A stretch of 64,000 nt of DNA. It comes from Escherichia phage vB_EcoM_ESCO32. The stretch is from the sequence record OM386658.1. One strand, written 5' to 3'. The notes under the pieces are model-generated. The model saw nothing but the letters and a program-made list of their open reading frames with translations, searched no databases and had not been told where the DNA came from. The position numbers and the translations under genes are program-made. Below are positions 9,429 through 50,429 of this stretch, piece by piece; position 1 is the stretch's first letter; each line of letters begins with the position of its first letter.

Positions 9429-9526
9429 ATAAGACTAAAATCACTTAAAAAGAACCGCTAGAGTTTGAAGGAGAAAACCATGAGCGAAAAGAGAAATTTT
9501 CTCTAGCGATTCCATTTAAATAATCT

Positions 9527-9601
9527 TGGAGCGAGTAACAGGACTTGAACCTGCACCTGGAGGGTGGAAACCTCATATGCTACCATTAACACTATACCCG
9601 C
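9527..9601 (-). tRNA. tRNA-Gly(TCC)
   Basis: Acceptor GCGGGTA/TACTCGC, anticodon loop TTTCCAC, T-arm GCAGG-TTCAAGT-CCTGT, CCA. Confidence 0.55.
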
Positions 9602-9656
9602 TTAACAATATTACTCTAACATATTATTAGCCCCTTTGTCAAGAGGCTTTTAATAT

Positions 9657-9980
9657 TTATTTTAAAATAGTAGATGCACCACGTCTATTTAGATATGCAA
9701 CCGTAAAGCTCAAATCACCTATTTCTTCAGGTTCCCACTGACCTTCTAAGCCATAACAAGAACAATGATATGCGTGTACTTCATAAAACAAAGATGTTTT
9801 CATATCATAGAAATAAACGTGAGATTCGCCTTCATAATATGCACAATCATAAGTGGCAGAAAGAATTACAATGTTATCCTTATCTAACTCTACTTCATAA
9901 TATCTTTCAACATCTTCAATATCATCAAAACCATCGAAAACATTGATATTAAAATATTTCTCTAACTCTTTTTCTGTCAC
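9657..9980 (-). CDS. hypothetical protein (Cys/Tyr-rich)
   Basis: ORF track; N-terminus trimmed to GTG after AAAGGAG because longer ORF overlaps tRNA-Thr. Confidence 0.35.
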   Translation of the reverse strand: MTEKELEKYFNINVFDGFDDIEDVERYYEVELDKDNIVILSATYDCAYYEGESHVYFYDMKTSLFYEVHAYHCSCYGLEGQWEPEEIGDLSFTVAYLNRRGASTILK

Positions 9981-10002
9981 ATACACTCCTTTAGAGTTAA
10001 AT

Positions 10003-10076
10003 TGGTGCTCCCACAAGGACTCGAACCCTGATAAGTTGCTTACAAGGCAACCGTAATAGCCGTTATACGATAGGAG
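10003..10076 (-). tRNA. tRNA-Thr(TGT)
   Basis: Acceptor GCTCCTA/TGGGAGC, anticodon arm GTTGC-CTTGTAA-GCAAC, T-arm CAGGG-TTCGAGT-CCTTG, CCA. Confidence 0.6.
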
Positions 10077-10156
10077 CAAAATATTTGCTTGGTAGGATTT
10101 GATACCTACAATTCTAGAAAATTCTAGAGGTTTCTATTAACTCTACAAGCACTATT

Positions 10157-10241
10157 TGGCGATGGATCAAGGATTTGAACCTTGCTAGAACTTTCGTTCA
10201 CGGATTAACAGTCCGTCGCCCAACCACTAGGCCAATCCATC
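10157..10241 (-). tRNA. tRNA-Asn(GTT)-like with extra long variable arm (atypical)
   Basis: Anticodon arm ACGGA-CTGTTAA-TCCGT (Asn-like), then GAAC-GAAA-GTTC extra hairpin, T-arm CAAGG-TTCAAAT-CCTTG, acceptor GATGGAT/ATCCATC, CCA. Confidence 0.4.
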
Positions 10242-10248
10242 TTTAATT

Positions 10249-10335
10249 TGGTGCAGGTAGTTGGACTCGAACCAACGAAGCCCCGAAGGGCAGGAGATTT
10301 ACAGTCTCCAGCAATTGCCGCTATGCGATACCTAC
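10249..10335 (-). tRNA. tRNA-Tyr(GTA), type II
   Basis: Acceptor GTAGGTA/TACCTGC, anticodon arm GGAGA-CTGTAAA-TCTCC, long variable arm, T-arm GTTGG-TTCGAGT-CCAAC, CCA. Confidence 0.6.
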
Positions 10336-10340
10336 GTGTT

Positions 10341-10416
10341 TGGTACATCGTGAAGGATTCGAACCTTCGACCTTGGAGTTAAAAGCCCCTTGCTCTACCA
10401 ACTAAGCTAACGATGT
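10341..10416 (-). tRNA. tRNA-Lys(TTT)
   Basis: Acceptor ACATCGT/ACGATGT, D-arm GCTT-AGTTGGTA-GAGC, anticodon loop CTTTTAA, T-arm GAAGG-TTCGAAT-CCTTC, CCA. Confidence 0.65.
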
Positions 10417-10586
10417 ATAAATTATCTTTAAAATAGCCAGTGTTCGCACCACTGACTATGAGGTATCGGTAAGATGGTGGGGGCCATCTGCCGAAAGTCT
10501 ACTCTATTAAAGTAAGATGGTTGCAGCCATCCTTCCAAAAAGTTACACCAAGCAACTAAGAGTAACAAGCTACATTAAAGATAACT

Positions 10587-10672
10587 TGGCGGTAGATGTA
10601 GGACTTGAACCTACACGCCGTTTCCGACGACAGTTTAGCAAACTGTTGTGGCTACCATTTCACCAATCTACC
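10587..10672 (-). tRNA. tRNA-Ser(GCT), type II
   Basis: Acceptor GGTAGAT/ATCTACC, anticodon arm ACAGT-TTGCTAA-ACTGT, long variable arm, T-arm GTAGG-TTCAAGT-CCTAC, CCA. Confidence 0.6.
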
Positions 10673-10680
10673 GTTCTTAA

Positions 10681-10833
10681 TTATTCAAAACAACCGGAAT
10701 CTTTTTGTTCTGTTTTTACCATACGAATATTCTTACCATCTTCAGATTGTTGAAGATTAGAATACTCATAAACAACTTTATTATTTACAATCTTAACTCC
10801 GGTAACAACCTGTCCAATAGTTTTATAATTCAT
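10681..10833 (-). CDS. hypothetical small protein (about 50 aa)
   Basis: ORF track trimmed to internal ATG (MNYKTIGQ...) preceded by AGGAGC; sits between tRNA genes. Confidence 0.3.
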   Translation of the reverse strand: MNYKTIGQVVTGVKIVNNKVVYEYSNLQQSEDGKNIRMVKTEQKDSGCFE

Positions 10834-10851
10834 AAAGCTCCTAAGAGAATT

Positions 10852-10941
10852 TGGAGGAAGATAATGGAGTCGAACCATCACCGTATCGCTACAATGGGCC
10901 AGGGTTCAAACCTGGTTGCGCACCGCTGCGCCCTACCTTCC
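10852..10941 (-). tRNA. tRNA-Ser(TGA), type II
   Basis: Acceptor GGAAGGT/ATCTTCC, anticodon arm CCAGG-TTTGAAC-CCTGG, long variable arm, T-arm GATGG-TTCGACT-CCATT, CCA. Confidence 0.55.
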
Positions 10942-11004
10942 TGTTACCATACTTTAAATCTAACATAAAACTATCTTGCTTGTCAAGTAGTTTTTAAAAC
11001 TTTT

Positions 11005-11086
11005 TGGCCGGGGTGACAGGATTCGAACCTGCATACTCCAATTACTCGGTTAACGCCTGATTAGAAGTCAGGTGAGATACACCCCG
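11005..11086 (-). tRNA. tRNA-Arg(TCT)-like element with atypical architecture
   Basis: Acceptor CGGGGTG/CACCCCG, anticodon arm CCTGA-CTTCTAA-TCAGG, T-arm GCAGG-TTCGAAT-CCTGT, CCA; but only 5 nt where the D-arm should be and a 23-nt segment between anticodon and T arms. Confidence 0.35.
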
Positions 11087-11267
11087 TTTTCATAATGACT
11101 ATAACAAAAAACTAAGTAAATGTCAAGATATTTTTTACTAAAATTACTATTTAAATTGAAGCCTAGTTATGGAATCGAACCATATTTCGTATTTAGTTAG
11201 ACAAAGCGGTCTAACATATTTTTCAGGCTTTGATGGCCTCGGAATTACCAAATACCCTACTAGGTGT

Positions 11268-11353
11268 TGGTGCAAGTGGAGGGATTCGAACCCTCAAGCA
11301 TTTAAGCGTTGCGTTTTAAGCACAATGTGTATCACCAATTCCACCACACTTGC
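11268..11353 (-). tRNA. tRNA-Leu(TAA), type II
   Basis: Acceptor GCAAGTG/CACTTGC, anticodon arm TTGTG-CTTAAAA-CGCAA, long variable arm, T-arm GAGGG-TTCGAAT-CCCTC, CCA. Confidence 0.6.
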
Positions 11354-11384
11354 ATATAGGAGATGCATAGCACCTCCTTTTAAA

Positions 11385-11460
11385 TGGTGGTTCCCCAGGG
11401 TTACAATCCCTGCCCTCGACACTTATGAGGTGTGCGCTCTCGTCAGTGAGCTATGGAACC
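11385..11460 (-). tRNA. tRNA (CAT anticodon; Met or Ile2) with non-canonical T-loop
   Basis: Acceptor GGTTCCA/GGGAACC, D-arm GCTC-ACTGACGA-GAGC, anticodon loop CTCATAA, T-arm CAGGG-ATTGTAA-CCCTG (no TTC), CCA. Confidence 0.45.
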
Positions 11461-12205: not shown

Positions 12206-13939
12206 TTAGTCAACCTGGATGGTTCCCATAGTACGAAGAACCTCTACATCAACACGGTTGCGGATATCAGTAAATGTTTCATCACGTCCTTCTACTTGTG
12301 GTGTAATAACCGTACCATCCCTGAAGATAACTTTTAACTCATTGTCTTCATCTTGGATATCTTTAAAAGAAAGATTATCCACAAGAGAAAGTTTACCGTT
12401 TGTATCCTTAACAACCTTAATAAAACCTTTTGCAGAGCGTTTACCAGGATCAGTTTTAGGCTCCTTACTTACCAAAATTTCGTGTTCACCGATGATACTA
12501 CCTGTTGCTTTAACAGCAAAACCAAAAGTATCTCGTGTATTGAACTGATAAGTATAACTACCAACACCAAATACAATATTGGAAGCTGCAAAACCTTTCT
12601 TCTTCAGTCGGCGTAAGATCTCGTGTTCTCGTTCAACAGTAATAGAATCACCATAAATCATACCGATGTGCTGATCAAGAACCTTGTAGCCTTTTCGGTT
12701 GATAGTACCACCAAACACTTCCCAAAGGATTTGAATAGAACCTACTGCTTCACAATAAGGAATCTCATAAGTTTCATCAATACAATCAGCAACACTGCAA
12801 TCCTGAAGAACATTGTAATACTTATTAACATCAGCCAAATGAACTACTTCAGTGGCTGTAGCAATACCATTATTTAAAAGGTCTTCATAGTTATCAAAAG
12901 ATTCAACATTGTATCCTGCAACAACTTTAACCGGATCTCCTGAATCTGGACGAATAACAAGACGACCATTTCGTGACATAATGGACTCTTTCAATTCTAC
13001 CAGAATGCGAGTCAAGACAGCCCAGTAATCATAAGAATCTGCTACATATGAACAAAAACCTTCTGGAACAATTTCTTCAATATAGCGGCGAAGAAACTCT
13101 TTCTCTGCTACATAACGAAGCCCATCAACATCATCTTTAAGATGTGGGAAATGTTTCTTCAGATCTTCAACAATAGCTCCAATGTTAGTCGTTGCTACTG
13201 AATGTTCTGTTGCCGGAATAGAACCTGCAACAAATTGATCATAATCAATACCATAGTAATCATGCACAGTTTCAATAGCCAGAATATTATCTGTTCCTGT
13301 GAAAGATGCCAAATGAGCGATACCACTCTTATAACCATCTTCGATATTGCTTAAGCCACGTAGACTAAAGTCATGACACTGGAAATTAACGTGATCAATG
13401 TTATCACACGTTGCCATCGCATACGCCATAGCGATACGCTTATACTGAAAAGCTGCTGTGGCATTAGTCATTGTCTTCCAAGTTTCATCTGACAAGAGTG
13501 TTTCCACATAGTTAGTTAACCAAAAGAATTTTTCTAAAGTGTTATGCACAGTAAACACAGGAACACCAATAGGACACAAAACACCTTCTGGCAGAGATCG
13601 AACTTCTAGCGGAAGATAACCTAAGTCGTGCAATTCTCCCCAACATTCAGCAGAAGGAGCAGAAGCACCTAATGCATTTTTAGACATACGGTAAAATTTA
13701 TTTACTGCTGCACTACGAGACATTTTAAAGAAGCTATCCCACATAGTTACAAGAGCATCAGTAACTGCTCGACGAATACCTAAAACAATTACACCACGTG
13801 CTTCACGATCTGCATAGTGTGCAAAGTTTTTATCATTACGAGGAGTTAAATTAGAGAAAATGAGTTTTGTATTTTGGTTGTACATCTGCTTGTGACCAGG
13901 CTTATACCAATCAGTAGCAAAAGGTGCAAAAATATTCAT
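12206..13939 (-). CDS. nicotinamide phosphoribosyltransferase-like enzyme (NAMPT family; Namat-type of phage NAD+ reconstitution pathway)
   Basis: 577 aa, NAMPT-like length and composition; immediately downstream of PRPP-synthetase-like gene, the arrangement described for phage NARP1. Confidence 0.75.
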   Translation of the reverse strand: MNIFAPFATDWYKPGHKQMYNQNTKLIFSNLTPRNDKNFAHYADREARGVIVLGIRRAVTDALVTMWDSFFKMSRSAAVNKFYRMSKNALGASAPSAECWGELHDLGYLPLEVRSLPEGVLCPIGVPVFTVHNTLEKFFWLTNYVETLLSDETWKTMTNATAAFQYKRIAMAYAMATCDNIDHVNFQCHDFSLRGLSNIEDGYKSGIAHLASFTGTDNILAIETVHDYYGIDYDQFVAGSIPATEHSVATTNIGAIVEDLKKHFPHLKDDVDGLRYVAEKEFLRRYIEEIVPEGFCSYVADSYDYWAVLTRILVELKESIMSRNGRLVIRPDSGDPVKVVAGYNVESFDNYEDLLNNGIATATEVVHLADVNKYYNVLQDCSVADCIDETYEIPYCEAVGSIQILWEVFGGTINRKGYKVLDQHIGMIYGDSITVEREHEILRRLKKKGFAASNIVFGVGSYTYQFNTRDTFGFAVKATGSIIGEHEILVSKEPKTDPGKRSAKGFIKVVKDTNGKLSLVDNLSFKDIQDEDNELKVIFRDGTVITPQVEGRDETFTDIRNRVDVEVLRTMGTIQVD

Positions 13940-14010: not shown

Positions 14011-14904
14011 TTAAAAATTCCACACGTATGGAGATACAATTTGTTGTTGCAAATCTGACTGATTCTTAACAAGAACACCGGAATCTTCTTGGATGTTATC
14101 TTCCCACACATTAAGAGAATGAATGCAGTCAAAGTGCTCACTTAACTCTTTAAGACCTTTAGAAAAGATACCGTGTGTAACATATAACTCAATCTTACCT
14201 GCGTTACGAGCACGTAGCACTTTAGCCAATTCAATAAAAGTTCTACCGCCGTCACAGATATCATCTACGATCATCAGGTTACGCTTATTGAAATCCTGTA
14301 CAGAAATGTCTGTACGAACAATAGCACCTGTTGCAGTATCTCTAACCTTCTCTGCACAGAACACATCTAAAGACATTTTCTTAGATAATTTAAATATTTT
14401 CTTAAGAGCACCACCATCAGGACTAACAAGAGCAAAATTCTCCATACGTAACTTCCACTTTAAAGTTTCGTAAGCAATCTCTTCTTGAGGTATTACACAG
14501 AGTCTGTCAAACACTGCTGGAGTAACATCACTATGTGGATCAGCAACGATAACACGTGAGAAATTTAATGAATTAATTATAGAAGCAAATGCTTTAACTC
14601 CGAATGCTTCCCCAGGTTCACACACTCTGTCTTGTCGTGCATATGGCACATACAACATGAGCAAATCAACACAATATGGTTTATGATATAGCATATTGTC
14701 CAATGCATTCTTAGTCATAACCAAAGTCATCAAGTCTTTAGCAGATCTTACTTCTAAAGAGAGTAAGATTCTGTCTGTAGCATGATTGAAACCTGATAGA
14801 TTCGTGTCTAGTTGAACATGTTGTTCTCCACCAGAGAACGTAAAGACTTTAACGTCTACATCAGTAACATAACAGTCAACACCATGTAGAATACTAACTT
14901 TCAT
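14011..14904 (-). CDS. ribose-phosphate pyrophosphokinase-like enzyme (Prs family; Adps-type of phage NAD+ reconstitution pathway)
   Basis: 297 aa; Prs-like motifs VSPDGGALKK and MIVDDICDGGRT (PRPP-binding loop); adjacent to NAMPT-like gene. Confidence 0.75.
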   Translation of the reverse strand: MKVSILHGVDCYVTDVDVKVFTFSGGEQHVQLDTNLSGFNHATDRILLSLEVRSAKDLMTLVMTKNALDNMLYHKPYCVDLLMLYVPYARQDRVCEPGEAFGVKAFASIINSLNFSRVIVADPHSDVTPAVFDRLCVIPQEEIAYETLKWKLRMENFALVSPDGGALKKIFKLSKKMSLDVFCAEKVRDTATGAIVRTDISVQDFNKRNLMIVDDICDGGRTFIELAKVLRARNAGKIELYVTHGIFSKGLKELSEHFDCIHSLNVWEDNIQEDSGVLVKNQSDLQQQIVSPYVWNF

Positions 14905-16948: not shown

Positions 16949-17292
16949 TAGTGGCTAAAATTCTTTGGTTAGACGATTTAAGAGATCCTAAAGATTATGG
17001 TTATGAGGATGCCATTTGGTTAAAATCTTTTGGGGATTGGTCATCTTTTGTTTCAGATGAAGATAATTTCAATAATATCTCAGAAATACACTTCGATAAT
17101 GATCTTGGGGAAGATCAAGAAGGCTATCATGCGTTCTTAGATGTAGAATGTATGTTGTACGCTGGTGAATGGGATGCTCTTAAAACTATCTATGTTCATA
17201 CATCAAATCCTTCTGCTGCTGGTAAATATATGTTAGCTAAGGAAAATTTTATTGCATCCTATGGTGTTGAAATTAAACGTGTTAACTATTAA
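16918..17292 (+). CDS. hypothetical protein
   Basis: ORF track; true start may be downstream. Confidence 0.3.
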   Translation: MERRETGRGLIVAKILWLDDLRDPKDYGYEDAIWLKSFGDWSSFVSDEDNFNNISEIHFDNDLGEDQEGYHAFLDVECMLYAGEWDALKTIYVHTSNPSAAGKYMLAKENFIASYGVEIKRVNY

Positions 17293-17447: not shown

Positions 17448-17810
17448 TTGATGTGCGCTACTAATCAACATGATATTTGTTACCAACCTCTCACTTGGAT
17501 TGGTGAGGATCACTATGCTCAACGTGTTATAGTCTGCGCTGCGAACAAGTATATTCTTAACAATGGCGAAGAGTTAATTATTCCTTGTGTTAGGCATGCA
17601 AATCCTGTACTATCTGCACAACTTAATGTTTTAAAAGATGCAGGATTGATCGATAAACTGTTTTGCTTACCTGATAATCAAGGGTTTATTGATCAGTATT
17701 ATAACTGGTGGAGTCGCAAAGATGCTTATGTCATTGCAGATAACGCCAAACAAATTAACTACGAAAGAAATGGTCACAACAGTGAACTATTCAGCGAGGG
17801 ATTATACTAA
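17448..17810 (+). CDS. hypothetical protein (Cys-containing)
   Basis: ORF track. Confidence 0.3.
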   Translation: MMCATNQHDICYQPLTWIGEDHYAQRVIVCAANKYILNNGEELIIPCVRHANPVLSAQLNVLKDAGLIDKLFCLPDNQGFIDQYYNWWSRKDAYVIADNAKQINYERNGHNSELFSEGLY

Positions 17811-18361
17811 TGTTTATTACAAGTGATTTGCATTTTATGCACAAACGTATCCGAGAGTTTGCTCCTGAATATCGCCCGTGGGAAGATATGGAGCATATGA
17901 CAGAAGCACTGATCGAAGCATGGAATAAATGTGCCACAACACCAGGAGTAAAGATGTACCATCTTGGGGACTTCTGTTTCGGGACTGAAGAAGATACCCG
18001 TAAGATTGCTTCCCGTCTCCAAGGGGATATTACTTACTGTGTTGGGAACCATGATTACAGTAAACACAGAAAAGTGCTTGCAGAGTATGGAGAAGTTGTG
18101 TATTATGACGAAGTGAAATATCAGAAGCTGTTCTTCGTCTTAAGTCATTACCCTATGGCTGCCTGGAATAAACAAGGGCATGGATCAATCATGCTACATG
18201 GACACTCTCACGGATCATTTCCTGATCATTTGTATGGGAAAATGTTGGATGTTGGTTGGGATGCACACGGGAAAATCTTGCATTTTGACGAAATCATCTC
18301 TATTATGGATAAGCGTGATATTATTGTTGTAGATCATCATAAGATAATCAAAGGAGATTAA
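17810..18361 (+). CDS. calcineurin-like metallophosphoesterase (putative RNA-end phosphatase of repair cassette)
   Basis: Motifs SDLHFMH, HLGDFCFG, GNHDY, HGHSH characteristic of metallophosphoesterases; directly upstream of RNA ligase and kinase. Confidence 0.6.
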   Translation: MFITSDLHFMHKRIREFAPEYRPWEDMEHMTEALIEAWNKCATTPGVKMYHLGDFCFGTEEDTRKIASRLQGDITYCVGNHDYSKHRKVLAEYGEVVYYDEVKYQKLFFVLSHYPMAAWNKQGHGSIMLHGHSHGSFPDHLYGKMLDVGWDAHGKILHFDEIISIMDKRDIIVVDHHKIIKGD

Positions 18362-18362
18362 T

Positions 18363-19295
18363 GTGGCTAAGTTCAATTGTGATGACCTGATTGCAAAAGG
18401 TTTAGTGCATAAAAAAGAAGTTAAGTCTGGAGAGTATGCTGGTCTTGCTGTACTTAAATACAAAAACAATGTATTCTGGGATAACTTGTGGAACGTTGAC
18501 AAACGACTTTTAGATTGTCGTGGGTTGGTTGTTGACTCAGAAGATAATATTGTTATTTGGCCTTTTACTAAAATCTTTAATCGTTTTGAGAATGGTACAG
18601 ATCTTCCAGGAGATGAATTTGTAGATGCTGTCCGTAAAGTAAATGGTTTTATGGCATCTGTAGGTGTGTACAAAGGGCAACTTGTTGTATCAACAACAGG
18701 GAGCCTAGAGTCAGACTTTGCAACTATTGCCAAGAACCGTATTGTTTCCGAGTGTGATGACATAGAGTATTTCATTAAGTGGACAGAAAGTGCAAAAGCA
18801 ACTTTCCTTTTTGAAATCTGTGATCCTTCTGATCCACATGTTGTCGAAGAAGAACCAGGCGCATACTTAATTGGAGCAAGAATTCAAAATCTTGATGGGA
18901 CAAGTTTCATGTTACCTGAAGGTGTTCTTGATGGGATTGCATCTATTACAAAGTTTAAACGTCCTGAAGTTTATCCGATGATTAAATTTTCAGATGTTGT
19001 TGAAATGTCTAAACATTGTAAACACGAAGGGTTTGTTGTTCGTGAAACAAACTACCCGTTTAACTTACTGTTAAAGATTAAGTCACCATACTATCTTGCT
19101 AAAAAATTCCTTATGCGTGGTGGCAATAAGAAGTGGGATATGATTTGGGACAACCCAAACAATGCTAAACAAATTGTTGACGAAGAATATTATACTTTGC
19201 TAGAATGGCTTCGAAACAACTTTACTAAGACTCAATGGGCTGCTTTAGATCCACAAGAGCGACGTAAAGAAATAGAAAACTTCTTTGGAGGCTAA
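18363..19295 (+). CDS. RNA ligase, T4 Rnl1-like
   Basis: GTG start; blocks DCRGLVV, WPFTKIFNRFEN, RKVNGFMAS (motif I with Asn in place of Asp), EGFVVR, LLLKIKSPYY align by eye with T4 RnlA motifs. Confidence 0.65.
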   Translation: MAKFNCDDLIAKGLVHKKEVKSGEYAGLAVLKYKNNVFWDNLWNVDKRLLDCRGLVVDSEDNIVIWPFTKIFNRFENGTDLPGDEFVDAVRKVNGFMASVGVYKGQLVVSTTGSLESDFATIAKNRIVSECDDIEYFIKWTESAKATFLFEICDPSDPHVVEEEPGAYLIGARIQNLDGTSFMLPEGVLDGIASITKFKRPEVYPMIKFSDVVEMSKHCKHEGFVVRETNYPFNLLLKIKSPYYLAKKFLMRGGNKKWDMIWDNPNNAKQIVDEEYYTLLEWLRNNFTKTQWAALDPQERRKEIENFFGG

Positions 19296-19700
19296 ATGAA
19301 ACAACTTATCATCTTACGTGGTGTTTCAGGTGCAGGTAAATCTACAGTAGCAGAAATTATTTCTGAAGGTTATTGGCCTATCTGTGAGGCAGATCAATAT
19401 CATTACACAGAAAGTGGTGTTTACGATTGGAAGCCAGAGAATGTAGGTAAAGCACACGCATGGTGTCAGAGTATTGTTCGTGATGCTATGGCATCTAATA
19501 TTAAAAAGATTATTGTCTCTAACACTTCAACCACAGAGAAAGAACTTAAACCTTATTTAACTCTTGCTGAAGAGTTTGGTTATCAAGTTATCTCTTTAGT
19601 AGTTGAAAATAGGCACGGTAACGACTCAATTCATGAGGTTCCACAACATATCCGTGATCAGCAAGAGAAACGTCTTCGCAGTTCACTTAAGCTACAATAA
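19296..19700 (+). CDS. polynucleotide 5'-kinase (T4 Pnk kinase-domain-like, P-loop)
   Basis: Walker A GVSGAGKST; VVSNTSTTEKELKPYLTLAEEFGYQV resembles T4 Pnk kinase domain. Confidence 0.6.
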   Translation: MKQLIILRGVSGAGKSTVAEIISEGYWPICEADQYHYTESGVYDWKPENVGKAHAWCQSIVRDAMASNIKKIIVSNTSTTEKELKPYLTLAEEFGYQVISLVVENRHGNDSIHEVPQHIRDQQEKRLRSSLKLQ

Positions 19701-19709
19701 GGAGAATTT

Positions 19710-20030
19710 ATGGAAATTTATTCTGGTAAAGGTAAGTATTTTACAGTAGTCGATGATGGTGAAATTATTATTTATCGCTACGGAAGTGAGTGGAGGAACG
19801 AAACAGGAGACGGCTATATCTTATCTTTGCTGCATTTGATTGATAGTCTTATGGAAGACCTTGAAGAAACAAAACGTTCATATGATGATCAAGTAGATTC
19901 ATTAGAAAACATTATTTCAGATCTAAATGAAGAAGTTTCTTGTTTGAATGAACAAGTTTCAGAGTTAACACTGGAATGTGAAGATTTAAATGATGTTATT
20001 GCAGATTTAAATGAACGTCTTAAGGATTAA
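19710..20030 (+). CDS. hypothetical acidic coiled-coil protein
   Basis: ORF track; heptad-like LNEEVSCLNEQVSELTLECEDLNDVIADLNERL. Confidence 0.3.
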   Translation: MEIYSGKGKYFTVVDDGEIIIYRYGSEWRNETGDGYILSLLHLIDSLMEDLEETKRSYDDQVDSLENIISDLNEEVSCLNEQVSELTLECEDLNDVIADLNERLKD

Positions 20031-20033
20031 TAT

Positions 20034-20258
20034 ATGAGCACAGCTATCTATGTTAAAGGTGTAAGCGAAGATCAACAAATGTTATTTTCATTTGGTGAGA
20101 ATACTGAAATGGAAGATATGTTTAATGATATCCTTGATGCCCTTTCTTCGGAAGGGTTCACAATGATTACATACTTTATGGCAACATCTTCTGAATATGT
20201 TGATACAGATCTTGAAGATTTGATGGAAGAAATTCAAACTCTTGTGTATAATTGGTAA
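20034..20258 (+). CDS. hypothetical acidic protein
   Basis: ORF track. Confidence 0.3.
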   Translation: MSTAIYVKGVSEDQQMLFSFGENTEMEDMFNDILDALSSEGFTMITYFMATSSEYVDTDLEDLMEEIQTLVYNW

Positions 20259-20455
20259 GGTTAACTATGACATTTATTGAAGAACTAACGAGAATTGCAA
20301 ACGCGCCTAACAGTAGTGAAGATCCTTACTTTATGGTGGATGATTACACTGGTGGTAATATTGATGATGCCTATGAACTAGGCAGACTACACGGTGAAAT
20401 TGAAATGGCTAAATGGGTTCTTTCGCAACTGGAGGTTAAAGATGAAACAAACTAA
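20252..20455 (+). CDS. hypothetical protein
   Basis: ORF track. Confidence 0.3.
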   Translation: MVRLTMTFIEELTRIANAPNSSEDPYFMVDDYTGGNIDDAYELGRLHGEIEMAKWVLSQLEVKDETN

Positions 20456-21557
20456 TCCTACATTATATGGTAAAACTTCTACAGGTAAAATTAGACAGTG
20501 GTCAGTCTATACCGAAGGTAGTGTTGTAACTGTTGCTCATGGTCAATTAGGTGGAAAGATCACTAGCAAATCTTATACGGCAGAACCTAAAAATATTGGT
20601 CGCTCAAATGAAACAACAGCAGAAGAACAAGCTGAAATAGAAGCTCTTGCCAAATGGACAAAGCAACTTAAGAATGGGTACTATAAAACAAAAGAGGAAG
20701 CTGAAAACCATGTTCCTTCCACACCCATGAAATGTCAGGATTATAAAGATTATGCTGATCGTGTTTTGTTCCCTGGTTATGCACAATATAAATTGAATGG
20801 TCTACGTTCAATGATTAACATGCAAGGTGAATGTTTATCTAAAGCTGGGGAGGTATATAAACTTCCACCTCACTGGGAAGAAATTCCAACCTTCATTAAA
20901 GAAGTAGTTGGTCATCCTCTTGACGGTGAAGTTTTTGCTGGTTTGGGTGTCCTTAGCCTTCAACAAATTAATAGTGCGTGGAAAAAGCATAATGCTAACA
21001 CACCACTTCTTAAATACTATGTATATGATGTTCCTGTGGCATCTGTACCATTTGAGAAGAGGGTTCAAGTTTTGGCTGCTCTAAAAGAAGTTGTTGAAGA
21101 TAAAGGTTTAGATGAACTTATTTGTGTAGTACATACAGAGTACATTGAAAACCAAGAACAGTTTGATGCTTTCTATGCAAAAGCTCTACGTGAGAAAGCG
21201 GAAGGTGTGGTGTATCGTAACGCAAAAGGTGTTTACGAATTCGATAAACGTTCTTATGATGTTATTAAACGTAAACCACGGCAGACGCTTGAAGTTAAAG
21301 TGGTAAGTGCAAAGCGTGATAAAAATGGTGACGGGGTATTGACAGGAGAGATGGAAAATGGTAAAGTAGTCGAATTCCTGATGCGTAAGGATTCAGATGA
21401 AACCATTAACTATCGTAAAGAAGAAAATGCTTTGACACTTATTGGTCAATTTGTTGAAATAGAGTACGAAGAATTTTCAGACGAAGGTATTCCTACCAAG
21501 CCTGTTGGGGTACGTGTACGTAAGATGATTCCAGGTACTTGGGAACCAGCAGAGTAA
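20442..21557 (+). CDS. ATP-dependent DNA ligase (T7-like)
   Basis: ATG after GGAGG; motif I KLNGLR (Asn replaces canonical Asp), motif III LDGEVF, motif IV EGVVYR, motif V DVIKRK, C-terminal PVGVRVRK similar to T7 ligase. Confidence 0.7.
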   Translation: MKQTNPTLYGKTSTGKIRQWSVYTEGSVVTVAHGQLGGKITSKSYTAEPKNIGRSNETTAEEQAEIEALAKWTKQLKNGYYKTKEEAENHVPSTPMKCQDYKDYADRVLFPGYAQYKLNGLRSMINMQGECLSKAGEVYKLPPHWEEIPTFIKEVVGHPLDGEVFAGLGVLSLQQINSAWKKHNANTPLLKYYVYDVPVASVPFEKRVQVLAALKEVVEDKGLDELICVVHTEYIENQEQFDAFYAKALREKAEGVVYRNAKGVYEFDKRSYDVIKRKPRQTLEVKVVSAKRDKNGDGVLTGEMENGKVVEFLMRKDSDETINYRKEENALTLIGQFVEIEYEEFSDEGIPTKPVGVRVRKMIPGTWEPAE

Positions 21558-21754: not shown

Positions 21755-22477
21755 ATGATCGAGAATTTTTTCAAACAAGTAAAAGTGGACAATAGCTTCT
21801 TTATCAAAGCTGCCGATCAAATTGTTGCTTGGAATGCTAAGGCACGTGGTGGAGTAACCCCAGAATTTACTCAAGAGATGTTTGAAGCTCAACTTTCTTT
21901 TGTACGAGAAGAACTTAAAGAGTTTCAAGCAGCAGCACAGGAAAATGATCACGTTGAATTACTTGATGCAGCAGCAGATATTTTTGTGGTAGCATCCTAC
22001 CTGGCATTTATGTTCTTTGGTAAAGAAGGTGTTGATAAAGCTCTGGAAATGCCAACAGGAGATGTTCTGGCAGAGAACATTTACGATGTTATCATTGAAT
22101 TTGATAAAATGGTAGAAAATGACTTGCAATTTGCCTTAATGTCTCTTACACTTACCCGTATGGCACGAGATACTTTGGTGCGTTCTGTTTATAACGAGAA
22201 GAAGGTTATGCGTGAAGTGTTGAATAGCAATGAGTCCAAGTATCCTACCAAGAAGCAACTCCTGGCTATTTGGGAAACTAAGGATATTATTGAAGCTCTT
22301 GAAAAAGAGTGCGATGCTATCGAGATGCGAAGCAAAGATCGTGCAGAAGGTTCTTATACTGGGGTACATGCTGTATATAACGAAGTTCAAAAGGTATACG
22401 TATTCTTTGATGACAAAGGTAAAATTATGAAACCATCTACCTTTGTTAAACCTAATATCGCAGCAATCATTGCTTAA
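21755..22477 (+). CDS. MazG-like all-alpha nucleoside triphosphate pyrophosphohydrolase (putative)
   Basis: EExxE...D-type motif: VREELKEFQAAAQEN...ELLDAAADIFVVASYLA. Confidence 0.5.
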   Translation: MIENFFKQVKVDNSFFIKAADQIVAWNAKARGGVTPEFTQEMFEAQLSFVREELKEFQAAAQENDHVELLDAAADIFVVASYLAFMFFGKEGVDKALEMPTGDVLAENIYDVIIEFDKMVENDLQFALMSLTLTRMARDTLVRSVYNEKKVMREVLNSNESKYPTKKQLLAIWETKDIIEALEKECDAIEMRSKDRAEGSYTGVHAVYNEVQKVYVFFDDKGKIMKPSTFVKPNIAAIIA

Positions 22478-49616: not shown

Positions 49617-50429
49617 ATGCGAAGAGTAATTTTTGTTAGTGGCGCAGGTTTAAGTGCAGACAGTGGGATTCGAACGTTCCGAACAGACACAGATAGTGGT
49701 CGTGCCTTATGGGAAGAATATGACTTAGAAGAGGTCTGCGATATTGGAGCTTTCCAAGCAGGTTATCGTGTGAGAACATCTCCAGATCTTCCAGTGGTCG
49801 GTGGTGTAGACGAGAACGGTATGGACTTGTATGCCAAAACACACGAATTTTATAACAAAAGACGTGTTGAGCTTAAAGATGTACAACCTAATGCTGCACA
49901 TATTCAAATAGCAAGGTGGTTTAAGGAATATCCTAACCAAGTAGTAAACTTGACAACAAACGTTGATGACCTACTAGAGCGAGCAGGTGTAGACAGGGAT
50001 TCTGTTATTCACGTGCACGGATATCTTCCTGAAGTAGTTTACCGTATGCATCCTGGAGATTACAAAACACTGGTAGACATTGGTTACAATAGTATAAACA
50101 TAGATGATTATAACTGGGTGAAGCCTAATGTTGTATTTTTTGGTGAGGCTGCACCTTTGTATGCAGATATGGCTCACTTGTTTGATACTTTGACCATGCA
50201 AGATTTGGTTGTTGTAGTAGGATGTTCAAACCAAGTTATCAATTTTAATTGGGAATTATTCCCTGCACTTAATATGGGTACAAAAATGATCGTTGTTAAC
50301 CCAGGAATTAATTACGAAGAAACTCTTCTTTACGAAGATAGAGGAGTCTTTGTTTATAGAGAAAAGGCAGCAGATGCTTTTAGCAATCCTGCTTTCATAA
50401 AAATGATAGAAGATCATTTGACTAAGTAA
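49617..50429 (+). CDS. SIR2-family (sirtuin-like) NAD+-dependent enzyme lacking zinc-ribbon module
   Basis: GAGLSADSGIRTFR NAD-binding signature, QPNAAHIQIA, TTNVDDLL, catalytic HVHG, VVFFGE, VVVGCS; no CxxC pairs. Confidence 0.7.
   Translation: MRRVIFVSGAGLSADSGIRTFRTDTDSGRALWEEYDLEEVCDIGAFQAGYRVRTSPDLPVVGGVDENGMDLYAKTHEFYNKRRVELKDVQPNAAHIQIARWFKEYPNQVVNLTTNVDDLLERAGVDRDSVIHVHGYLPEVVYRMHPGDYKTLVDIGYNSINIDDYNWVKPNVVFFGEAAPLYADMAHLFDTLTMQDLVVVVGCSNQVINFNWELFPALNMGTKMIVVNPGINYEETLLYEDRGVFVYREKAADAFSNPAFIKMIEDHLTK

Follow-up and report, generated by a model that had tools for sequence, protein, structure and literature searches.

Escherichia phage vB_EcoM_ESCO32 (OM386658.1) encodes an RNA ligase and a DNA ligase in which the aspartate of nucleotidyltransferase motif I found in the T4 and T7 enzymes is replaced by asparagine. 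Does this replacement signal a defect, a departure in chemistry or an ordinary variant? A sequence-only reading of the locus treated the Asn as unusual and proposed that it is either tolerated or accompanied by altered adenylylation or metal use. The evidence obtained directly, comprising sequence, alignment, conservation, fold, gene context and covariation for the 64,000-nucleotide stretch analysed (the window; ∼98% identical to annotated Justusliebigvirus genomes), leads us to propose that both proteins are very probably ordinary, functional ATP-dependent enzymes in which Asn is an ancestral, selected subfamily state rather than a lesion or new chemistry. The relevant features are listed in Table 1.

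Table 1. Ligase genes, motifs and associated genes, in window coordinates. ASFV, African swine fever virus.
Feature	Position	Strand	Evidence
cREC (cyclic-phosphate processing receiver-like) protein	16951..17292	+	Pfam PF20274 cREC_REC E 2.9e-13
Calcineurin-like metallophosphoesterase	17810..18361	+	PHROG 547 'phosphoesterase' E 8.5e-55; Pfam Metallophos_2 E 4.8e-4
Rnl1-like ATP-dependent RNA ligase, 310 aa	18363..19295	+	Pfam RNA_lig_T4_1 E 5.4e-14; PHROG 562 E 9e-68
RNA ligase motif I K92-V-N94-G95	18636..18647	+	codons AAA GTA AAT GGT
P-loop nucleotide/polynucleotide kinase-like protein, 134 aa	19296..19700	+	Pfam AAA_33 E 6.9e-10; PHROG 2071 E 8.9e-58
ATP-dependent DNA ligase, 371 aa	20442..21557	+	Pfam DNA_ligase_A_M E 3e-11; PHROG 114 E 1.8e-74
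DNA ligase N-terminal-domain loop K50-N-I-G-R-S-N56-E-T-T	20589..20618	+	alignment to ASFV 'gknlgkknatt'
DNA ligase motif I K117-L-N119-G-L-R122	20790..20807	+	codons AAA TTG AAT GGT CTA CGT
DNA ligase OB-domain T352-K353	21495..21500	+	alignment to ASFV ligase
MazG-like NTP pyrophosphohydrolase	21755..22477	+	Pfam PRA-PH E 3.2e-7
Sirtuin (Sir2 homologue)	49617-50429		48% identity to rV5 sirtuin

The RNA ligase reading frame has a GTG start preceded by AAAGGAG, and its codons at 18630-18653 (GTC CGT AAA GTA AAT GGT TTT ATG) read VRKVNGFM, with K92 and N94. Those at 20784-20810 (CAA TAT AAA TTG AAT GGT CTA CGT TCA) read QYKLNGLRS in the DNA ligase, with K117 and N119 counted from the ATG at 20442. 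This ATG was taken in place of the GTG at 20394 given in the open-reading-frame list, which was rejected because close homologues are 371 residues long, a 98%-identical reference record annotates the corresponding start and a GGAGG precedes it. The codons thus bear out the motifs RKVNGF and YKLNGLR reported earlier. The alignment check that had been suggested identifies both as true motif I, with the lysines at the nucleophile position: the RNA ligase family profile aligns 'rkvnGfma' with 'tkedGslv' of T4 Rnl1 (K99/D101; hmmsearch E 6e-10, hhalign E 9.6e-10) and phmmer aligns 'qyklnglr' of the DNA ligase with 'qrkrngvr' of the ASFV enzyme (K151/N153; PDB code 6imj, E 3.2e-7). K92 is predicted to be the adenylylated lysine of the RNA ligase, and in both enzymes ATP would adenylylate the lysine two residues upstream of the Asn.

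The remaining motifs had been described as intact. This holds for motifs IV and V (EGFVVR and LKIKS in the RNA ligase; EGVVYR and IKRKP in the DNA ligase), whereas a motif III of the 'DGE' type is confined to the DNA ligase (LDGEVF, residues 160-165), the RNA ligase having the Rnl1-style FLFEIC (E151). Motif Ia is noncanonical in both enzymes (S-T-T-G, with no basic residue, in the RNA ligase; S-K for S-R in the DNA ligase). The further catalytic residues R53, K70, E151, E222, G223, K238 and K240 of the RNA ligase and D161, E163, E254, G255, K276 and K278 of the DNA ligase are invariant in the compared homologues.

Conservation was assessed, for each ligase, in the window protein together with 120 database cluster representatives. 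The K, N and G of motif I are invariant in the RNA ligases (121/121), and the DNA ligases have N in 112/121 and D in 9/121; Asn is retained down to ∼47% identity in these sets. Because it is present in so many aligned sequences, the Asn is, on this alignment, not a product of chance or sequencing in either ligase, and with orthologues so commonly carrying it the implied unusualness falls away. KxNGF also occurs in the RNA ligases of rV5, Pakpunavirus JG005, Vibrio VF16 and Acinetobacter Aci02-2 (31-46% identity), and T4-type Rnl1 has KxDGS in 6/6 sampled sequences. To judge from these comparisons, the RNA ligase belongs to a KxNGF phage subfamily whose C-terminal helical region is short.

This conservation makes it extremely improbable that one or both proteins are dead or repurposed, with Asn reflecting relaxed constraint and the RNA ligase homologue acting solely, for example, in tail-fibre attachment, which is a second function of T4 gp63. 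Such a role is suggested by the name 'RNA ligase and tail fiber protein attachment catalyst' carried by PHROG 562 and many GenBank records, and by the absence from the subfamily of the motif Ia lysine (T4 Rnl1 K119). However, the label was carried over from the annotation of T4, the nucleophile lysine and the residues of motifs III, IV and V are invariant in 55 to 121 homologues, as are R53 and K70, the ATP γ-phosphate-binding residues of the N-terminal subdomain, and the invariance of the RNA ligase Asn itself indicates selection, not drift. Furthermore, tight operon-like coupling to kinase and phosphoesterase genes is meaningful only if the ligase is active. Both ligases are presumed to be catalytically active.

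Motif I Asn has precedents in three active ligases. The ASFV enzyme (K151-R-N153-G) is active, and both its mechanism and its ATP contacts are conserved (PMC6344480). In the catalytically active fungal Trl1, the KxNG residue Asn150 reaches a penta-hydrated metal, Mn(H2O)5, through water, as motif III and IV residues do, and this metal complex is, according to the authors, common to Trl1, T4 Rnl1 and other ligases (PMC6379707). MthRnl, also KxNG and active, retains 22% activity as N99A, experimental evidence that its Asn is not essential; according to its authors, Asp, Asn, His, Met and Ser all occur naturally here, and the Asn counterpart in fungal tRNA ligase is dispensable in vivo (PMC4797309). 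Of the two possibilities first raised, tolerance is thus the one upheld, and altered adenylylation or metal use finds no support in the usual metal contact of Trl1, the conserved ATP contacts of ASFV ligase or the MthRnl mutant. If the contacts seen in these homologues carry over, Asn would have a similar structural role in both phage enzymes. The Asn-type motif I is real but ordinary, the conserved state of both subfamilies. It may still have a kinetic consequence in the DNA ligase, since motif I Asp matters in Asp-type DNA ligases: LigIV D275A has lost nearly all activity (PMC6035275) and the Asp of Chlorella virus ligase is reported to be essential for step 2 (PMC4797309). In ASFV ligase, N153D was assayed solely within triple and quadruple mutants, so that the contribution of Asn was not isolated (PMC6344480).

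The DNA ligase had been called T7-like, a label that proves imprecise. Its AF2 model (pLDDT 93.6) superposes on the whole of closed ASFV ligase (Foldseek, 6iml, E 4.1e-25, TM 0.78, 405 columns); Chlorella virus ligase (2q2t) ranks 12 and T7 ligase (1a0i; E 8e-11, TM 0.41) ranks 32. N-terminal (∼1-95), adenylation (∼96-280) and OB (∼281-371) domains are present, and the enzyme is ASFV-type in architecture, including the N-terminal domain termed unique by the ASFV authors (PMC6344480). The loop beginning at K50, in which N51 and N56 are invariant and K50 and G53 at least 90% conserved among 54 homologues, is by alignment the equivalent of the ASFV β7-α3 loop (K85-N86...N91), which contacts DNA (PMC6344480).

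In human LIG1, motif I Asp570 forms a salt bridge with R871 (PMC6344480), and LigIV has a corresponding pair, D275-R577 (PMC6035275). Residues T352-K353 of the phage DNA ligase align with ASFV L402-Q403 and LIG1 R871-F872, the latter equivalence being stated by the ASFV authors (PMC6344480). A sample of 144 full-length DNA ligase representatives (26-51% identity) divides into 87 with Asp and 57 with Asn in motif I, with at least 24 N/D switches by parsimony on a neighbour-joining tree. Of the Asp-type sequences 30/87 have the OB Arg, as against 0/57 of the Asn-type (Fisher p = 2.7e-8, with shared ancestry not fully corrected for). Because 57 of the 87 Asp-type sequences also lack it, loss of this Arg is, within this sample, permissive of Asn and does not force it. 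Asn would be permitted in the phage DNA ligase because its lineage lacks the OB-domain Arg that pairs with motif I Asp in closed DNA-bound cellular ligases, an arrangement probably common to ASFV-type three-domain ligases.

The same residues could be read as consequential, with N119, T352, K353 and Leu173 together loosening the nick-site clamp, as proposed for error-prone ASFV ligase; the enzyme would then tolerate mismatched, damaged or modified nicks or change the rates of AMP transfer to DNA. The ASFV nick site is more flexible than that of LIG1, and its residues N153, L211, L402 and Q403 were singled out as important to catalytic efficiency (PMC6344480). The phage enzyme combines N119 with L173 ('LSLQQI' versus ASFV 'PLQWI'), motif Ia is S-K, not S-R, in all 121 close sequences, and the pairing of N with T-K (109 sequences) and D with L-K (8/9) among close orthologues suggests coupled evolution. 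We nevertheless consider this unlikely: the ASFV authors call the basis of low fidelity elusive and assign the residues to complex assembly, not mismatch discrimination (PMC6344480), the phage OB pair is not L-Q, and the frequency of N/D switches suggests near-neutral exchange once Arg is absent.

The RNA ligase, which we likewise take to be an ordinary enzyme, is Rnl1-like, as described earlier, in its adenylyltransferase domain, but not beyond it: the T4 Rnl1 tRNA-specificity C-domain was not detected, the profile alignment ending at residue ∼265. Its gene starts 1 nt after the phosphoesterase stop and its own stop abuts the kinase start, with the cREC gene upstream of the three. The phosphoesterase, whose Metallophos_2 match is below the curated Pfam cut-off, also matches PDB entry 1xm7 (aq_1665; E 1.3e-6) and is a predicted 3'-end healing enzyme. 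The kinase also matches PHROG 505 'polynucleotide kinase' (E 5.8e-9) and, over its full length but weakly, T4 Pnk (1ly1; E 0.24), and is predicted to act on 5'-OH ends; the cREC protein is predicted to be a further end-healing component. Grouping of ligase, kinase and phosphoesterase genes is conserved across rV5, JG005, VF16 and Aci02-2: the phosphoesterase is linked to the ligase in the first three, the kinase adjoins it in the last three, and a cREC domain occurs in rV5 gp079, adjoining the rV5 RNA ligase. In the 98%-identical reference record, the MazG-like gene carries the annotation nucleoside triphosphate pyrophosphohydrolase. An rV5-type neighbourhood of ligase, cREC, kinase, MazG and phosphoesterase was previously predicted to function in RNA repair (Iyer et al., 2022; PMC9503650), and such a cassette is thus already described, as a prediction, for rV5-like phages. 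RNA ligase, kinase, phosphoesterase and cREC would together form a heal-and-seal module whose likely task is to mend tRNAs cut by host anticodon nucleases.

A more specific scheme, which we consider improbable, makes the RNA ligase Asn part of a Trl1-like site recognizing a 2'-phosphate on the 3'-OH end. In such a yeast-like pathway, the cyclic phosphate would be opened to a 2'-phosphate and the 5' end phosphorylated; sealing would then depend on the 2'-phosphate, which either the phage sirtuin or the KptA of the host would finally remove in an NAD-dependent step. In Trl1, Asn150, His227, Arg334 and Arg337 hold a sulfate proposed as a 2'-PO4 mimic (PMC6379707). In the phage subfamily, N94 is accompanied by an invariant His159 aligned with His227, EGFVVR (Trl1 EGFVIR) and a conserved basic helix after motif V (YLxKKxxMR versus YLMYRQWRE), all absent from T4-type Rnl1s; moreover, the window encodes Nampt and Prs in addition to cREC and the Sir2 homologue, and KptA-like RNA 2'-phosphate removal has been predicted for the rV5-type sirtuin (PMC9503650). 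However, by overall profile the enzyme resembles T4 Rnl1 (probability 96%) far more than Trl1 (E 0.0018, probability 15%), the Asn is reported to be dispensable in vivo in the fungal enzyme (PMC4797309), the helix alignment may be off by one or two residues, the Trl1 C-domain is not demonstrable, the sulfate assignment is itself a proposal and the calcineurin-like phosphoesterase could strip the phosphate altogether. The shared details remain a speculative lead.

Among known systems, the phage DNA ligase is best matched in the PDB, by both sequence and fold, by ASFV DNA ligase (AsfvLIG, NP419L; 6IMJ/6IMK/6IML/6IMN), with which it shares the three domains, K-x-N-G-x-R, Leu at the L211 position and the K-N-x-G-x-x-N DNA-contacting loop. 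It is only ∼22% identical, shorter (371 versus 419 residues) and from a phage of a bacterial host, and differs at the OB nick-site pair and in motif Ia, which is S-R in ASFV. T7 and Chlorella virus ligases share the nucleotidyltransferase core, OB domain, motifs I, III, IIIa, IV and V and ATP use, but are two-domain KxDGxR enzymes lacking the N-terminal domain.

For the RNA ligase, the relative of solved structure that lies nearest by sequence profile is T4 Rnl1 (gp63; 2C5U, 5TT6), which shares the Rnl1-type N-terminal subdomain (phage R53/K70, T4 R54/K75), aligned motifs III, IV and V and a pairing with end-healing enzymes, the tRNA-repair role of the phage enzyme being a prediction. The phage protein differs in having KxNGF for KEDGS and T112 at the K119 position, and in being 64 residues shorter; its partners are a separate kinase, phosphoesterase and cREC, whereas T4 has a fused kinase-HAD phosphatase (Pnkp). 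The Trl1 ligase domain (Rnl6; 6N0T, 6N67, 9QW7) matches the phage AF2 model (pLDDT 91.5) as well in fold (Foldseek, 9qw7/6n0t, E ∼1e-12; T4 Rnl1 5tt6, E 4.9e-13) and shares KxNG, E-[IL]-C-D...H after motif III, EGFV[IV]R and basic residues in the post-motif V helix. Its profile similarity is weak, its motif Ia SKHS is absent from the phage enzyme and it is fused to kinase and 2H cyclic phosphodiesterase domains. MthRnl (Methanobacterium thermoautotrophicum, Rnl3) shares KxNG and an Rnl1-like N-terminal subdomain, but is archaeal, circularizes single-stranded RNA, has its own C-terminal dimerization domain and gives a lower fold match (E ∼1e-7 to 1e-9). Finally, the sirtuin-linked neighbourhoods of rV5/Mydo type, known from computational prediction, contain the same T4-like tRNA ligase, cREC, nucleotide kinase, MazG and calcineurin-like phosphoesterase; in the window, the sirtuin lies ∼30 kb away rather than adjoining the ligase, and the DNA ligase gene and three small ORFs stand between kinase and MazG.

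At the third position of motif I, the codons read VRKVNGFM (18630–18653) in the Rnl1-like RNA ligase of 310 residues and QYKLNGLRS (20784–20810) in the DNA ligase of 371 residues. The sequence-only reading was correct in placing asparagine there in both enzymes (Asn94 and Asn119), and its presence is non-random. Lys117 of the DNA ligase aligned by phmmer on Lys151 of the African swine fever virus (ASFV) DNA ligase ('qyklnglr' against 'qrkrngvr'); Lys151 and Asn153 of the latter were counted along the printed alignment and match the numbering of the structure paper (PMC6344480). For the RNA ligase, a single-sequence phmmer search of PDB sequences gave no match even at an E value of 10, so that a family profile of 55 sequences was needed for the alignment with T4 Rnl1, in which Lys92 falls on Lys99 ('rkvnGf' against 'tkedGs', with Lys99 and Asp101; hmmsearch E 6e-10, hhalign E 9.6e-10). 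No exception to the motif I lysine and glycine is seen among the 121 sequences of either ligase family, and on these alignments Lys92 and Lys117 are assigned as the true motif I nucleophiles. A misplaced motif I lysine is ruled out by the alignments to the ASFV ligase and T4 Rnl1, and a sequencing error (AAT versus GAT) by the retention of Asn across independent genomes.

Judged from alignments of each window protein with 120 cluster representatives, the best in a 5.8-billion-protein collection (down to ∼47% identity), asparagine is the conserved native residue of both subfamilies and has characterized precedents. The position is Asn in all 121 RNA ligases and in 112 of the 121 DNA ligases, the other nine having Asp; homologues occur in 660 phage records for the RNA ligase and 958 for the DNA ligase. 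The KxNGF signature reaches rV5, Pakpunavirus JG005, Vibrio phage VF16 and Acinetobacter phage Aci02-2 (31–46% identity to the RNA ligase), whereas KxDGS is found in 6/6 T4-type Rnl1 proteins (T4, Sharanji, BcepSaruman, Wofford, CPX and pW2); in the sampled phages, therefore, two RNA-ligase clades are consistently unlike at this residue. Natural residues at the third position of motif I among ligases comprise Asp, Asn, His, Met and Ser; Asn99 in the KxNG of the archaeal RNA ligase MthRnl is non-essential, and fungal tRNA ligase can do without the equivalent Asn in vivo (PMC4797309). When the fungal tRNA ligase construct Trl1-LIG is bound to ATP and two Mn ions, motif I Asn150 meets the penta-hydrated catalytic metal via water; the glutamates of motifs III and IV make contact in the same way, in a metal complex that the authors describe as common to T4 Rnl1 and others (PMC6379707). 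The ASFV ligase, with K151-R-N153-G, is active, and its ATP contacts and mechanism are reported to be conserved (PMC6344480). A literature search found no primary papers dealing directly with Asp101 of T4 Rnl1 or with conservative replacements of Asp29 in the Chlorella virus ligase; points concerning the motif I Asp of these enzymes are drawn from secondary statements in PMC4797309 and PMC6035275. The orthologues do not bear out the premise that this Asn is anomalous and calls for an explanation of its own, and altered adenylylation or metal use finds no support in view of the Trl1, MthRnl and ASFV precedents with KxNG. The motif I finding is an already known, lineage-typical variant and matters little as stated.

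The remaining motifs had been described as intact, with DGE as motif III. Motifs III–V are all present and invariant (Glu151, Glu222-Gly223 and Lys238/Lys240 in the RNA ligase; Asp161/Glu163, Glu254-Gly255 and Lys276/Lys278 in the DNA ligase), but DGE occurs only in the DNA ligase, the RNA ligase having an Rnl1-style FLFEIC, and motif Ia is off-canon in both enzymes. In the RNA ligase motif Ia is a nearly invariant S-T-T-G-[ST] (residues 110–114, 18690–18704), with Thr112 at the position of T4 Rnl1 Lys119 (K117-S-K119-G) and of the lysine in Trl1 SKHS; because S-T-T-G replaces these sequences, the subfamily is without a motif Ia basic residue. In the DNA ligase (residues 132–137, 20835–20852) motif Ia is S-K134 in 119/121 sequences and T-K in 2/121, Lys134 being invariant, while S-R is found in the ASFV ligase and Arg in 113 of 144 distant relatives (as S-R in 102). 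By alignment, this Lys is a second conservative active-site change in the clade.

The best PDB sequence match of the DNA ligase is the ASFV enzyme (phmmer E 3e-7), in an alignment that opens inside the N-terminal domain and takes in the β7–α3 loop. An AlphaFold2 model (pLDDT 93.6) can be superposed on the ASFV ligase, in its closed, DNA-bound form, over the whole length of that enzyme (Foldseek E 4e-25, TM 0.78; 405 alignment columns between the 371-residue model and the 403-residue structure). An extra N-terminal domain of ∼95 residues lies ahead of the adenylation domain, and two-domain ligases (Lig E, Chlorella virus and T7) match in the adenylation and OB domains only. The N-terminal domain and the full-length superposition therefore define an ASFV-type three-domain ligase and not a T7-type one; the earlier 'T7-like' label has to be given up, given this domain, the motif I Asn and the placing of T7 ligase (PDB code 1a0i) at rank 32 by fold. 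In NCBIfam neither the RNA ligase nor the phosphoesterase has a model, and the DNA ligase gave nothing above threshold, with sub-threshold matches only. A Rhizobium phage ligase (PDB code 9fzx), considered as an ASFV-type phage ligase, was rejected as T4/Prochlorococcus-like.

The ASFV N-terminal domain was termed 'completely novel' and Asn153, Leu211, Leu402 and Gln403 'unique' in the structure paper, which offered the domain, Asn153 and Leu211 as drug-target features (PMC6344480). A search of 1.84 billion cluster representatives (50% identity clusters) with the DNA ligase profile gave 3,481 matches at E ≤ 1e-30, and among the best 150 of these nearly all are full-length. The N-terminal domain, Asn153 and Leu211 are common to a very large phage ligase family (958 phage genome records; 3,481 clusters). 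The ASFV–phage relationship itself is not new, since Yutin and Koonin (2009) grouped the ASFV ligase with those of bacteria and phages and inferred a bacterial or phage origin for it (PMC2806865). The shared N-terminal domain and Asn are apparently undiscussed, the sole co-mention of AsfvLIG and bacteriophage in a literature search concerning an unrelated ASFV protein. Several relatives are 706–785 residues long and match the ligase profile in two separated stretches, which points to either a fusion or an inserted element, possibly an intein or homing endonuclease, located between the N-terminal and adenylation domains.

The motif I residue has a counterpart in the OB domain, forming the pairs Asp570–Arg871 in LIG1 and Asn153–Leu402 in the ASFV ligase (PMC6344480) and Asp275–Arg577 in LigIV (PMC6035275); the equivalent site in the phage enzyme is Thr352-Lys353, corresponding to ASFV Leu402-Gln403 and LIG1 Arg871-Phe872. 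Across 144 full-length representatives with 26–51% identity to the window DNA ligase, motif I has Asp in 87 and Asn in 57, and Arg occupies the OB position in 30 of the 87 sequences of Asp type but never in the 57 of Asn type (Fisher p = 2.7e-8, not fully phylogeny-corrected). A neighbour-joining tree with Fitch parsimony requires a minimum of 24 Asn/Asp and 13 Arg/non-Arg changes, so that this exclusion is not one inherited event. In close orthologues Asn goes with T-K (109 sequences) and Asp with L-K (8/9), which suggests that the two sites are coupled at a further level, in addition to the mutual exclusion of Asn and Arg among the more distant relatives. KxDGxR accompanied by Q-F at the OB site is found in the ligases of Felix O1, an rV5-like phage, PaP1 and LSL4. 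The simplest reading is that in the absence of the Arg partner the carboxylate would no longer be needed, allowing Asn and Asp to interchange. The exclusion provides a simple structural rationale, and natural variants, for nick-site design and fidelity studies.

The 3.8 kb around both ligase genes shares 97–98% identity with complete Justusliebigvirus genomes (Stephanstirmvirinae, phi92-like E. coli myophages), e.g. vB-Eco-KMB37, in whose records the corresponding ORFs are labelled phosphoesterase, RNA ligase, nucleotide kinase and DNA ligase; dozens of nearly identical phage genomes already carry annotations for both ligase genes. Features of the locus are listed in the table.

Genes of the ligase locus and related features of the window
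Feature	Coordinates	Strand	Remarks
15 tRNA genes	8713-11460	-	Ile, Met x2, Leu x2, Phe, Pro, Gln, Gly, Thr, Asn, Tyr, Lys(UUU), Ser x2
Nampt/NAPRTase-family gene	12206-13939	-	PF04095, E 2.5e-37; NAD+ salvage-type
Ribose-phosphate pyrophosphokinase-like (Prs-like) gene	14011-14904	-	pairs with Nampt-like gene
cREC (cyclic-phosphate processing receiver domain) protein	16951-17292	+	PF20274, E 2.9e-13; just upstream of phosphoesterase
Calcineurin-like phosphoesterase	17810-18361	+	family-level match
RNA ligase	18363-19295	+	Pfam RNA_lig_T4_1, PHROG 562
P-loop kinase	19296-19700	+	family-level match
Three small ORFs		+	between kinase and DNA ligase
DNA ligase	20442-21557	+	start ATG at 20442
MazG-like pyrophosphohydrolase	21755-22477	+	downstream of DNA ligase
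Sir2-family protein	49617-50429	+	PF02146, E 3e-22; 48% identical to rV5 sirtuin

The phosphoesterase, RNA ligase and kinase genes abut, with 1–2 nt from stop to start and a Shine-Dalgarno sequence at each start. The DNA ligase was begun at its ATG because the homologues have 371 residues and the reference record begins at the corresponding position; a GTG start at 20394 is spurious, produced by an ORF rule that takes the first start codon following a stop. Four small conserved ORFs of unassigned function lie in or beside the cassette (17448–17810 and 19710–20455, both +): one of 120 residues labelled 'Arn.3 conserved hypothetical' in the reference record, a 106-residue coiled coil, a 74-residue acidic protein and one of 67 residues overlapping the DNA ligase start by 14 nt. 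The GC skew changes sign from negative to positive at ∼15–16 kb and back to negative at ∼50 kb; these flips coincide with switches in transcription direction, the ligase genes lying in the + block between them.

Gene linkage points to a heal-and-seal module, the ligase gene adjoining those of a predicted 5' kinase and of a phosphoesterase predicted to act on 3' ends; the identities of the kinase and phosphoesterase are family-level matches only. The linkage of ligase, kinase and phosphoesterase is found again in rV5, JG005, VF16 and Aci02-2, and rV5 gp079, a neighbour of the rV5 RNA ligase, also has a cREC domain. For rV5-like phages, Iyer et al. predicted that a 'type 2' neighbourhood is an NAD-utilizing RNA-repair system and that the rV5 sirtuin takes 2'-phosphates off RNA (PMC9503650). 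The gene set of the window (ligase, kinase, phosphoesterase, cREC, MazG, Sir2 and Nampt/Prs) is that of this 'type 2' neighbourhood. The Sir2 gene is not adjacent to the RNA ligase gene, lying ∼30 kb away. In Pakpunavirus JG005 the Nampt-like and Prs-like pair directly adjoins the RNA ligase and kinase, which suggests that NAD supply and RNA repair are functionally linked. Gene context makes it likely that the module would heal and then seal tRNAs cleaved by host nucleases. The tRNA cluster is ∼7 kb upstream of the RNA-repair cassette, and may be relevant to the evasion of host tRNA-cleaving defences.

The RNA ligase matches Pfam RNA_lig_T4_1 (E 5e-14) and PHROG 562 (E 9e-68), the description of which carries the T4 gp63 name. 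Its model (pLDDT 91.5) resembles T4 Rnl1 (E 5e-13) and fungal Trl1 ligase domains (E ∼1e-12) about equally. Residues 242–307 of the model form six short helices, and the tRNA-specificity C-domain of T4 Rnl1 is not detectably shared by profile alignment. Because RNA ligase families are defined by appended domains (PMC6379707), the protein is best filed as an 'Rnl1-like adenylyltransferase, uncharacterised KxNGF subfamily' and not as a bona fide Rnl1. The original Rnl1-like label holds for the adenylyltransferase domain, but does not extend to KxDG or to the motif Ia Lys.

Comparison with Trl1, using PDB chain sequences, places phage Asn94, His159 and EGFVVR on Trl1 Asn150, His227 and EGFVIR (hhalign and MAFFT). 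The segment E-I-C-D...H159 (residues 148–160, 18804–18842), in which His159 is invariant, is absent from T4-type Rnl1, and motif V is followed by a conserved basic helix, YLxKKxxMR (residues 237–253, 19071–19121), set against YLMYRQWRE in Trl1. No profile alignment of the RNA ligase with the Trl1 C-domain was obtained with hhalign. Trl1 binds a sulfate through Asn150, His227, Arg334 and Arg337, and this ion has been proposed as a stand-in for the 2'-phosphate that Trl1 requires (PMC6379707). Asn94, His159 and the helix bearing Lys247, Lys248 and Arg252 are thus a candidate Trl1-like pocket for a 2'-phosphate at the RNA 3' end, a reading to which we give little credence: the sirtuin and NAD-salvage genes in the window speak for it, but the overall Trl1 alignment is weak (hhalign E 0.0018) and the register of the helix uncertain. 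Were such a pocket present, the subfamily, with its 660 phage records, would act like yeast tRNA ligase in sealing 3'-OH,2'-PO4/5'-PO4 breaks; either the phage sirtuin or host KptA/Tpt1 would afterwards use NAD+ to take the 2'-phosphate off the junction. Bacteria would gain a physiological source of 2'-phosphate RNA junctions, and the travelling of NAD-salvage genes with the repair module would be explained. A KxNGF subfamily that joins an Rnl1-like core to Trl1-like active-site details could bear on the predicted NAD-dependent phage RNA repair.

The lasting value of the analysis lies in the ASFV-type architecture of a large phage ligase family, with its clean Asn/Arg exclusion, and in the uncharacterized KxNGF subfamily. 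The RNA ligase shares with T4 Rnl1 the γ-phosphate-binding N-terminal subdomain (residues 48–264 aligned on T4 residues 48–265, hhalign E 9.6e-10), with the invariant Arg53 and Lys70 falling on Arg54 and Lys75. It is 64 residues shorter, the profile alignment stopping at T4 residue 265, and it combines KxNG with S110-T-T112-G113 where T4 Rnl1 has KxDG and the motif Ia Lys119; conversely, T4-type Rnl1 is without the Trl1-like Asn, His159, EGFVVR and basic helix of the phage enzyme. The DNA ligase differs from T7-type ligases, which consist of adenylation and OB domains with KxDGxR, in its N-terminal domain and its Asn. It resembles the ASFV ligase in the strongly conserved loop K50-N-I-G-R-S-N56, the counterpart of the DNA-touching β7–α3 loop of the viral enzyme, and in Asn119 and Leu173, which align on Asn153 and Leu211 (Leu in 121/121 close sequences), but departs from it at Thr352-Lys353, where the viral enzyme has Leu402-Gln403 and 109 of 121 close sequences have T-K.
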